A stretch of DNA of 64,000 bases from Vicugna vicugna (lineage: Eukaryota): contig MU057989.1 in NCBI GenBank assembly GCA_013265495.1, forward strand, positions 124,001 through 188,000, in the 5' to 3' direction. The notes under the pieces were generated by a model. It was not told where the DNA came from, did no database searches, and worked only from the letters and a program-made list of their open reading frames with translations. The stretch's first letter is position 1, and each line of letters starts with the position of its first letter. Positions 53,049 to 56,000 of this stretch are shown here, one piece after another. A program made the position numbers and the translations under genes.

Positions 53049-56000
53049 ATGGGCACCTGGGCCTTCCCCACAGCCCTTTTCCTGCTCTGCCTGACTTCTG
53101 AAAGCCTGCAAGGCGGTGAGGGCGGGCGACAGGGCTGCTGGCGGGTCTGGGCAGCTGAGGTTGGGGCTGGGGTTTAGGCAGAGCATTGGGCCAGGTGCTG
53201 GGGCTCCAGAGGGAGTGGAGGGTTAGTGAAGTACGGCTGGGCAGGGTCTTGGGAGACAGAGATAGATGCCTGGGGCCTGCCACCTCTCTGTCTCTGGGGT
53301 CCCTGCCCTAAGTCAGCACCCGCCTTGCTCTCTAGGGCTACCTCCATTGTCTCCTAGACTAGGGAAAGGTAAGTGACCATCCCAGCTCCAGGGTCCAAGA
53401 AGACAGCCTGGTCTCTCCCTCCCAGGGCTCTGGGAGCTCTCTGGAGGAGAACTCCAGATGTTCCCTGCTCTGGGATCTGAATGTGGGGCCCAGGAGAACA
53501 TAGGTCCCACCCTGTTCTCCTGACAGGCAGCCTTGTTCGTGGTCAGCTCAAGTGTGAGGAGCACAGACACCACAAACCCTTGGAAAAGAGCTGAGATGGG
53601 GCAGAACCTCAGCTCCTGGTGTCAGAACATCAGTGCCCCAGTGGAAGGGGCCTGGAGCTGGGTCTTGAAGGAGGGCAGGTTGTGACAGGACAGGGGGAGG
53701 ACATCGCTGGCAGTGAGATAGGACAAAGTCCTGGAGGTGGGACAGGAAGAGAGGAGATGAGGCAAGGTGGAACAGGGGCCAGGGTGGGGTGTCCTCAAGA
53801 ATCTTCCCTTCAGGGACATGGGTGACCCTGCAGGTGGGACAGGGGTTCCCTCCTGAGACCTGACACATGTAAGCTGCAGGAGAGCAAGACTGGGGGGGGT
53901 GGTGCTGAGGGATGAGAAGGGCCTTTGAACCCCACCCTTCCTGCAAATCCCATCCTGCTCAGAATGGGCAGGAGACAGGTGCACCCAGCCCTGGAGGAGG
54001 TGGGGGATCTGCCCCCTAGAGTGTGGCCCAGATGCCTCCCTTCATGCCAGGGACCCTTCAGTTTCTGCTACCCCAACCACCGGTCTGCTCACCCTGTGAT
54101 GTGACCACCAGGGAACCCGAGGCCCAGAGAGAGGGGTGCATTCTCAATCTGCAAGGGGCATCTGGGTTCAGCCCTCTTTGCTGCCTCATAAGTCACTCCC
54201 TCTTCCCAACCCCACAGGCTTAGGAGGCCCCAATGGCTACCGATCAGGTAAAGCTGGCTGAGGGGTGGGTGGGCAGGGGAGAGGGACAGCTCTGTGTCCT
54301 CTGGAGGGGACTGAGCACCCCAGCTCCTGGCCCGTCCTGCCCCCCAAGCTCAACTTCCCCTTTCCCCCACAGGCTATGGCCCTTCCAGTGGTCTAGGAGC
54401 AGGTAAGGCAGGGCCAAAGGGGACTTGGGTCTGGGGGAAGCAGCCATCTCCAAAATACATGGGGGCAGCACAGAGGCCCCCAGGCAGAGAAGCCCACCTG
54501 CCACCCTTCCTGCAGGCCTCCTCCCCTCCCTTCTGCACATCCCCCCTCTCCGCCCCCAGGAGTCTCTGGAGACCATCCTGGTGTCATCTCACTTGTGTAC
54601 CCCGCCCACCCTGGGGGTACAACTTTTTCCTGTCCCTGTCTGTTCCCTGCATTGCCCACTGAACCCAACTCCAGGTCGGGCACTGGCTCACTGCCAGGCC
54701 CTGCGTCAGCTAGGCATGGAAAGAAGGGAGGGAGTGGGCTCCCAGGGGCTCCTCCTGAGCCCTCCACCCTCCTTGGAAAGGAGGGACTGAAGCTAATTTC
54801 TCACGGACCCTCTGCTCAGAATGGCTATGAAGTGGAGAGGATCCCGGTTCTCTCACCCACTCACTGGATCTCCTCCAGGCTTCTGAGAGGGTGTTAAACC
54901 TCAGAAGCCAGGTGGGCCCTGCCTGGGCCCCAAGATCTCTCTGTCTCCGCATCTTTCTCTCACATTCCTCACCTCTCCCTTCCCCCAGGATTCCAGAATG
55001 GGCGCGGGCTGGGAGCCCAACCAGGTGAGTCTTGGGGGCTGGGCATTGCCTTTCTGCCTCCCTCCCAGGCCTCAGAAGGGAAGGGCAGGTTTGGTGGATG
55101 ATTCCAGGAGGTCGGGGGACAGGTAGACAGCCTTCAGGTTTGCTGTTTCTTGTGGGGTCCAAGGGTCCTGCACCCCACCCCAAACTTATCCAGTTCATGG
55201 CTTTCTCTCCTCCCAGGCCCTCCAGCTCAGAATGGCTATGAGACAGGTAGAAGTGGGGCCAGGGCTGAGGGGAGCAGAGATGGGGCCAGGATTCTAGGGG
55301 CATCCCTGAAACTTGGTCTCCTGAGACCCTCCCTTGATCCCCATCTCCTTCTTAGGCATTGGAGGGGGCCTGAAACCCCAGAAGCCAGGTGAGCCCTCAC
55401 CCTGCCTGTCTCTCCCCTTCTCTGTGCCCCTCCCCTCCCCTCATTTCTCCTTTACTCCTCCCTGACCCCCTCCTGCCCTGTCTCCTCAGGGTTTAGGAAC
55501 CGGAATGGGCTAGGAGTAGGGGCCTTCCCAGGTGCTGCTGCCCAGCCAGGTGAGGTGGGGGAAAAGGGGTGAATATGGATATTGGGGGGTGGAGGGGATA
55601 CAGCTGGTCAGCGTTCCGAGATGCTTCTCCCAGGCTCCCCCAGGGCAGAACTGGAGACTCACTGGAGGCAGAGGGAAGGACCATAAGGGTTCCTGTTGAC
55701 TGATTTGGGGAGCAGAGAAAAAGGGCCCCTCAGCTTCACCCTCACCTCAGATAGGACCCCAAATGCCCCCCACCTTACCCCTCAGCTCAGCACAGCTATG
55801 GAGCCCCAGGAAGAGGCTGGATCCCTGGGGGTCCCCTCAACTACTACATCTCTCTCCCCAGGCTTTGGAGAGGGGATGAAACCCCAGAAGCCAGGTGAGA
55901 CCTGCTCCTTGACTGCCCTCCCCTCTGTCCACCTTGCTATCTATCTGCCTTTTGAAGCCCCAGCCCCACTCCACTACCCACCCATCCTTCCCTGGCTCTG

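Follow-up and report, generated by a model that had tools for sequence, protein, structure and literature searches.

The GREP1 gene of Vicugna vicugna

The 64,000-nucleotide stretch of the Vicugna vicugna genome analyzed here (called "the window" below; positions 124,001 to 188,000 of contig MU057989.1 in assembly GCA_013265495.1, forward strand) carries near its right end a many-exon gene which, judged by its sequence, is the camelid orthologue of GREP1, the gene for glycine-rich extracellular protein 1. All coordinates are window positions unless another frame is named. Forty-eight coding exons were mapped, from an ATG at 53049 to a stop codon at extended coordinate 65850, 1.85 kb past the window end; the mapping was guided by orthologous proteins and made with an 8-mer diagonal mapper on the window plus 20 kb fetched past it, which was used in place of tblastn because a tblastn search with the GREP1 model of Camelus bactrianus (P0097) missed most of the mini-exons. 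The AG and GT dinucleotides are intact in 47 of 47 introns, and both borders of each of the 46 internal exons are in phase 1. When the exons are joined, the coding sequence measures 2004 nucleotides (nt) and contains exactly two stop codons, the terminal one and a TGA at codon 56 (54884-54886, + strand) that lies in coding exon 5. This TGA is the sole internal stop in the 48 exons; beyond it they contain no frameshift, no further stop and no lost splice dinucleotide, and without exon 5 the frame is open for 656 amino acids.

Coding exon 5 (54879-54911, + strand) is a 33-nt, phase 1-1 cassette exon of the type that we call KPQKP, after its encoded motif. Its borders are an acceptor AG at 54877-54878 and a donor GT at 54912-54913, and it reads ctcctccAG/GC TTC TGA GAG GGT GTT AAA CCT CAG AAG CCA G/GTgggc, where slashes mark the exon ends. 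The reading frame of exon 5 is fixed by its neighbours, all internal exons having phase 1 at both ends, and the stop goes beyond what chance would give because it is the only internal one in 48 exons and stands where all 12 of the paralogous exons have a Gly codon. The stop is present in the assembly sequence, and the surrounding region (54700-55100) is single copy in the 2.03-Gb assembly. A preliminary description of this DNA had already placed a TGA at 54884-54886 inside a 33-nt exon at 54879-54911, with canonical splice sites and a symmetric length, and had pointed to a sibling exon at 55862-55894; on re-reading, all of this stands, including the wording of the sibling (GC TTT GGA GAG GGG ATG AAA CCC CAG AAG CCA G/gtgaga). 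Its label "exon 4" for the stop-bearing exon has to be changed, as the exon is the fifth coding one: a 33-nt exon at 53336-53368 had been overlooked, and all later exon numbers shift by one. The exons downstream are open as it said, but there are 43 of them and not about 38.

In human, GREP1 (formerly LINC00514 or G029442) is described as a secreted, glycosylated, glycine-rich and disordered protein whose gene was first taken for a long non-coding RNA, and it is reported to be needed by some breast-cancer lines and to be linked to GDF15, with expression in breast and colon lines (Prensner et al., bioRxiv 10.1101/2020.03.10.981001). The renaming of LINC00514 as GREP1 by the HUGO Gene Nomenclature Committee is recorded in PMC9877250, and expression of mouse Grep1 (1520401A03Rik) in the inner annulus fibrosus of the intervertebral disc is reported in PMC13082079.

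The name GREP1, which the preliminary description had also given to the gene, agrees with the protein searches, with the signal peptide match and with the Pfam neighbourhood. An alignment of the window's KPQKP-type exon peptides retrieved mammalian models called "glycine-rich extracellular protein 1". A follow-up query with residues 36-200 of the most complete of them (P0018) gave 132 matches at E≤0.001, mostly named GREP1, from about 60 mammals and with E-values down to 4e-50; a query made from a single intron read-through (57322-57513) had no protein match at E≤1. The Camelus bactrianus model P0097 shares 52% of 7-mers with the window translation, and the other 128 proteins share at most 18%. 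The signal peptide in exon 1 is identical in 22 of 22 residues to the N-termini of seal P0094 and bear P0077 and in 20 of 22 to that of the human isoform 3 precursor (P0092), and the last exon ends in GRCPFGNC before its stop codon, where the human protein ends in GRCPLGKC. The likeness to human GREP1 thus extends over the signal peptide, the Gly-rich exon types, the C-terminus and the Pfam-domain neighbourhood, as expected of orthologous genes. Upstream in the window, Pfam matches are to FLYWCH (at 2.5 and 8.2 kb of the window), CUB (at 24.5 kb), HlyIII/PAQR (at 35.5 kb) and, on the minus strand, protein kinase (at 39.3 kb); we take this neighbourhood to be the FLYWCH1-KREMEN2-PAQR4-PKMYT1 group upstream of human GREP1. 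Two pig proteins, P0080 and P0083, which have the UniRef name PAQR4 and a PAQR Pfam domain, also hold GREP1 repeat exons and look like read-through or merged PAQR4-GREP1 models, and several GREP1 models have been automatically named "elastin-like" by NCBI.

Three exon types recur along the gene: 33-nt exons encoding xGGGxKPQKP, 36- to 60-nt exons whose peptide starts with F or Y, and 30-nt exons encoding PAAQNGYGP. All exons lie on the + strand. Exon 1 (53049-53115) holds the ATG and the signal peptide and ends in phase 1 at the donor gtgagg. Intron 1 remains open in frame for 20 codons past exon 1 (53116-53174); the pig P0104 and seal P0094 models read through the homologous intron 1, so retention of this intron has been built into some models. 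Exon 2 (53336-53368; 33 nt, AG/GT, phase 1-1, donor gtaagt), the one absent from the earlier list, matches GLPPLSPGLGK of cat and WLPPLSPSLGK of dolphin, and exon 3 (54218-54247; 30 nt) corresponds to GLGSPNGYRS or GLGGLNGYPS in orthologues. Exon 4 (54373-54402; 30 nt) encodes the anchor YGPxSGLGA that is found in the 65 classified models discussed below, and it would be joined to exon 6 if exon 5 were skipped. Exon 6 (54989-55024; 36 nt) begins 77 nt downstream of exon 5, and its orthologue directly follows exon 4 in 38 models. Exons 7-40 (55217-63956) all have AG/GT borders, are phase 1-1 and are open; exon 10 (55862-55894), the sibling mentioned above, is the paralogue closest to exon 5. 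Past the window lie exons 41-48 and the stop codon (contig positions 188061-189850), which come from the same mapping. A 36-nt, KPQKP-like candidate exon at 56525-56560 has a good acceptor and the donor gtgtag, and is used in no mapped model.

The Camelus bactrianus protein P0097 (389 amino acids) maps collinearly to the Vicugna gene with an open frame, 374 of 389 residues identical (96%), 15 substitutions and no insertion or deletion. At the level of sequence, this shows that the downstream 1.17 kb of coding sequence is collinear and open in two camelid lineages. The model has no signal peptide. Its start codon, an ATG at 57118, puts exon 15 (57118-57162) in the +1 frame, and the normal frame is restored at 58324, where an alternative acceptor 43 nt upstream of exon 19 creates a 76-nt exon (58324-58399). 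The model has the look of a non-productive isoform or of an artefact of annotation, and it says nothing direct about exon 5. A search of the animal's own genome with P0097 as the query found no retrocopy that might record the spliced form; its five matches are all in the GREP1 locus, at 182-189 kb of the contig. Metagenome sequence gave nothing of use either: the exact camelid pattern with N at 54884 had no match there, and a degenerate pattern for exon 4 had a single one (L004), a chance match in what its sequence shows to be a bacterial contig.

Splice sites, paralogues and relics of exon 5

Splice sites were scored by a leave-one-out weight matrix built from the gene's own 47 acceptors and 47 donors. 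The exon 5 acceptor region, actcactggatctcctccAG (54859-54878, + strand), has 72% pyrimidine in its last 18 nt and scores 12.3 bits, the 13th weakest of the 47; the donor, CAG/GTGGGC (54912-54917, + strand), scores 9.3 bits, the 18th weakest of the 47. The GTGGGC donor is unique to exon 5 among the 47, and six of its nine positions match CAG/GTAAGT. Both sites are canonical and fall below the gene median, which fits an alternative cassette exon without being decisive. The donor of exon 23 (59348-59380) is among the weakest in the gene (6.4 bits); the last base of that exon is A and not the usual G (CAA/gtaagc), and its junction codon is Arg where Camelus has Gly.

At the stop position, ten of the 13 KPQKP-type 33-nt exons have the codon GGA and two have GGT; TGA occurs in exon 5 only. 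Identity to the consensus of the 12 intact exons is 82% for exon 5 and 70 to 91% for those exons themselves. In a self-blastn comparison its best paralogue is exon 10 (83% over 54 nt), and the similarity between repeat units stops about 10 nt outside the exons, beyond which the introns are not alignable. Because the similarity ends so close to the exons, the repeat units are old duplicates. A recent duplication of the exon 5 unit was considered and ruled out, since the similarity is confined to the exons and these roughly 10 flanking nt.

Forty nt upstream of exon 5 lies a relic of an AQNGY-type exon (54805-54839, + strand; GPSAQNGYE) that matches GPAAQNGY in seven of eight residues and has neither an AG acceptor nor a GT donor. 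Similar AQNGY-type relics, in which the AG and/or the GT has been lost, were spotted by eye at 55785-55830 and 53955-53980. From these sequences it is apparent that whole repeat exons have probably died in GREP1 introns before.

Exon 5 in other mammals

The comparative evidence consists of predicted protein models, in which a missing exon may be deleted, skipped or stop-bearing in the genome concerned. The exon 4 pattern Y-G/S-P-x-x-G-L-G-A is matched by 77 of the 129 proteins; 11 of the 77 are other matches or unclassed, and 65 models were classified by what follows exon 4. An orthologue of exon 5 follows it in 21 models, from 12 anthropoid primates, one lemur, seven rodents and one elephant-like mammal. 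Its form is GYDGG, GYEGG or GSEGG followed by PQKP in the anthropoids, FGG at the start in lemur and rodents, and GFRGGIKPQKA in the elephant-like model; in human isoform 3 it is GYDGGVKPQKP and sits between YGPHSGLGA and GFVVRHGLGTQP. In human and mouse, unlike Vicugna with its TGA, this exon is open and part of the annotated protein. The preliminary description had allowed for an exon that is never included in orthologous transcripts; these 21 models, as far as protein models can tell, do include it.

The residue at the stop position in the 21 orthologous models is Gly in eight, Arg in one (the elephant-like model) and Asp or Glu in 12 (the anthropoids). The preliminary description had implied a single GGA to TGA change from the sibling exon. 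That change is indeed the simplest path, given that all 12 paralogues and eight orthologous models have Gly there, but the sibling is a paralogue and orthologues also carry Arg and Asp/Glu. We therefore hold GGA to TGA to be the most parsimonious route for these sequences, while the change may have passed through an AGA or CGA intermediate.

Exon 4 is joined straight to exon 6 in 38 of the 65 classified models. Thirty-four of the 38 are Laurasiatherian (four cetacean, nine felid, ten canid and seven mustelid models, a bear, a hyaena and two bats), and the others are from rabbit, colugo, marmot and squirrel. The exon 4-6 junction, 54402 to 54989 in Vicugna coordinates, is the one present in all 34 Laurasiatherian models of this group. 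In six further models (four from pig, one from reindeer, and marmot P0070), exon 4 is followed by an exon of the KPQKP type and then by exon 9 or exon 11. It is more likely that this exon is exon 8, brought there in skipped isoforms, than that it is exon 5; the pig form GLGGSVKPQRP, for example, resembles marmot exon 8 (GTGGSVKPQRP). The takin model skips both exon 4 and exon 5. There is thus no Laurasiatherian model with an unambiguous exon 5 among the classified proteins.

Predicted isoforms run to dozens in many of these species: the highest label is X40 for Weddell seal, X35 for dog and X30 for jaguarundi. The marmot models P0053 and P0070 differ by the skipping of exons 6-7. Taken as predictions, the models show that same-phase GREP1 exons are freely combined and that exon use varies among isoforms and lineages. 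Any internal GREP1 exon can be removed without a break in the frame, because all of them are symmetric and phase 1-1.

One KPQKP-type exon of the human isoforms P0092, P0118 and P0129, GFRGDMKAQEP, holds an RGD tripeptide and is targeted by guide RNA 2 of Prensner et al. This exon was considered as an orthologue of exon 5 and ruled out, since P0092 places it further downstream. No RGD tripeptide is present in the camelid exons mapped here. When the human primers and guides of Prensner et al. were mapped, the gene extended past the window and the FRGD exon was not assigned. A literature search found no paper on exon-level variation of GREP1, on skipping of its exons or on camelid GREP1; the supplementary sequence tables of Prensner et al. 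lay outside that search.

Consequences of the stop codon

We think it somewhat more probable than its negation (about 55%) that the TGA has inactivated an evolutionarily labile cassette exon, and that GREP1 still works through an mRNA from which this exon is skipped. The preliminary description had set loss of the gene beside tolerance through exon skipping. The second of these is favoured by the 47 intact exons of 48, by the 47 intact introns of 47 and by the exon 4-6 junction in 38 of 65 models; the first, loss of the whole gene, is not. Exon 5 would then be an old KPQKP-type exon, labile in evolution, which acquired a nonsense codon in this lineage, most simply by GGA to TGA. The working mRNA would join exon 4 (end 54402) to exon 6 (start 54989), would thereby carry the exon 4/6 junction used by other Laurasiatherian models, and would encode a secreted protein of 656 amino acids. 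Nonsense-mediated decay (NMD) acts on mRNAs whose stop codon precedes the last exon junction by more than 50-55 nt. With exon 5 included, translation would end after 55 residues, a long way before that junction (43 coding exons follow), and for this reason transcripts of that kind would be NMD targets. That exon 5 is skipped in the animal, that the gene continues to function, and whatever age the mutation may have are matters that we infer from the DNA.

Several observations weigh against loss of the exon with retention of the gene. Exon 5 has the look of a working exon: it keeps its AG, its GT and its length, and its similarity to the consensus (0.82) is mid-range when set beside that of the intact exons. 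No sequence feature compels its skipping, and if it were included constitutively the allele would be null. A predicted model that lacks exon 5 may stem from a genome in which the exon has been lost, is skipped or holds a stop, and a null mutation of very recent date would equally leave the other exons intact. Finally, P0097, the sole camelid model retrieved, has no signal peptide, and the annotation pipeline built no full-length Camelus protein with exon 5 skipped. The intact look of exon 5 is no proof that the stop is recent, as an AG, a GT and some 80% identity could survive in a neutral relic for tens of millions of years.

If exon 5 is still spliced in, the mRNA would stop at codon 56 and be degraded, and the TGA would mark a recent null allele or an early stage of lineage-specific pseudogenisation. 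We regard this as unlikely, though several points speak for it: the AG and GT of exon 5 are intact, its matrix scores are mid-range and it displays no extra decay, 21 models (primate, rodent and elephant-like) have its orthologue as a coding exon, and the matches contain no full-length camelid GREP1 with a signal peptide, that of Camelus bactrianus being truncated at its N-terminus. Against these stand the integrity of 47 of the 48 exons and of all splice dinucleotides, and the 389 downstream codons that are collinear, open and free of insertions and deletions relative to Camelus. In addition, no Laurasiatherian model needs exon 5 and its skipping is frame-neutral, so a stop in this exon need not disable the gene.

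It is improbable that the T at 54884 arose through faulty base calling or assembly, or that it represents one of two alleles whose commoner form is GGA (Gly), in which case exon 5 would be an ordinary coding exon. The codon is only one base away from the GGA of 10 of the 12 paralogous exons, and the rest of the exon and gene is intact, as such an error or polymorphism would predict. But in a finished assembly any given base is rarely a substitution error, and the region is single copy, with no collapsed paralogue elsewhere in the genome. A word scan of 53001-63000 against sequencing runs also speaks against an error: 24 runs were listed, 19 of them with half or more of the words, and 19 DNA-type runs (two organisms and seven studies listed) contain no less than 97% of the words sampled, a figure that applies to the region and not specifically to this site, and several of these runs may be from the source sample.

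Exon 5 might also be a regulated poison exon, a stop-bearing exon with working splice sites which is included in some tissues or conditions and sends GREP1 mRNA to NMD. SR-protein genes hold poison (NMD-switch) cassette exons, and exon 5 resembles them in being a symmetric cassette whose in-frame stop comes long before the last junction; it also has the canonical, sub-optimal splice sites typical of alternative cassettes, and the GREP1 models of other species have very many cassette isoforms. In its fullest form, this explanation has exon 5 as a conserved stop-bearing exon of Laurasiatheria, kept for tens of millions of years, hence out of all their coding models, whose regulated inclusion would shut GREP1 off by NMD where it is unwanted. 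The lack of a Laurasiatherian coding model with exon 5, in spite of the exon's retention in the camelid genome, would be expected if it were stop-bearing clade-wide. We nevertheless consider both the general and the clade-wide form very unlikely, since a single nonsense change in a labile repeat exon is most simply decay. The known conserved poison exons belong mostly to splicing-factor genes and have highly conserved introns on either side, whereas the paralogous similarity here ends about 10 nt outside the exons, and GREP1 does not regulate splicing but is a structural gene of the matrix type.

Recoding of the TGA, as selenocysteine or by programmed read-through, so that exon 5 is translated, would suit a TGA codon within an otherwise open frame but has a negligible chance of being correct, as orthologues carry Gly, Arg, Asp or Glu at the position and never Cys or U, Rfam found no selenocysteine insertion sequence (SECIS) element either in the 10 kb downstream locus (gathering thresholds) or in the 3' region at positions 1700-4500 of the downstream sequence L002 (E≤1), where its matches were tRNA-like only, and the available text of Prensner et al. 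does not describe GREP1 as a selenoprotein. Two tRNA-like Rfam matches downstream of GREP1 (45.7 and 29 bits; L002 3139-3210 and 3541-3612, within contig positions 191139-191612) are probably copies of tRNA-derived short interspersed elements.

GREP1 and other arrays of small exons

The closest analogue of the GREP1 array, in architecture, is tropoelastin (ELN), a secreted matrix protein which is described as having many small exons, all of phase 1:1, with frequent cassette skipping; ELN exons 34-35 are reported absent in great apes, and exon 22 is reported there as present but spliced out (PMC12554196). The internal GREP1 exons are likewise all phase 1-1 and removable as cassettes, and their use varies by lineage in the predicted models. 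The likeness is architectural, and we claim no sequence homology between the two. There is also a difference, in that the lost ELN exons have been deleted or are open but skipped, whereas GREP1 exon 5 persists with its splice sites and an in-frame stop. The kind of event is thus already known, and the exon 5 stop is a fresh instance of it.

GREP1 has only recently been recognised as protein-coding, and annotation pipelines can respond badly to arrays of this sort, as in the lone Camelus model without a signal peptide. Automated screens for gene loss should take warning from the Vicugna gene, as a nonsense codon in an array of same-phase exons may remove one exon and not the gene. Were exon 5 a regulated poison exon, which is unlikely on present evidence, it would be a new control point for GREP1. 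The locus shows that GREP1 is an elastin-style array of 48 same-phase mini-exons whose exon content differs among mammalian lineages.

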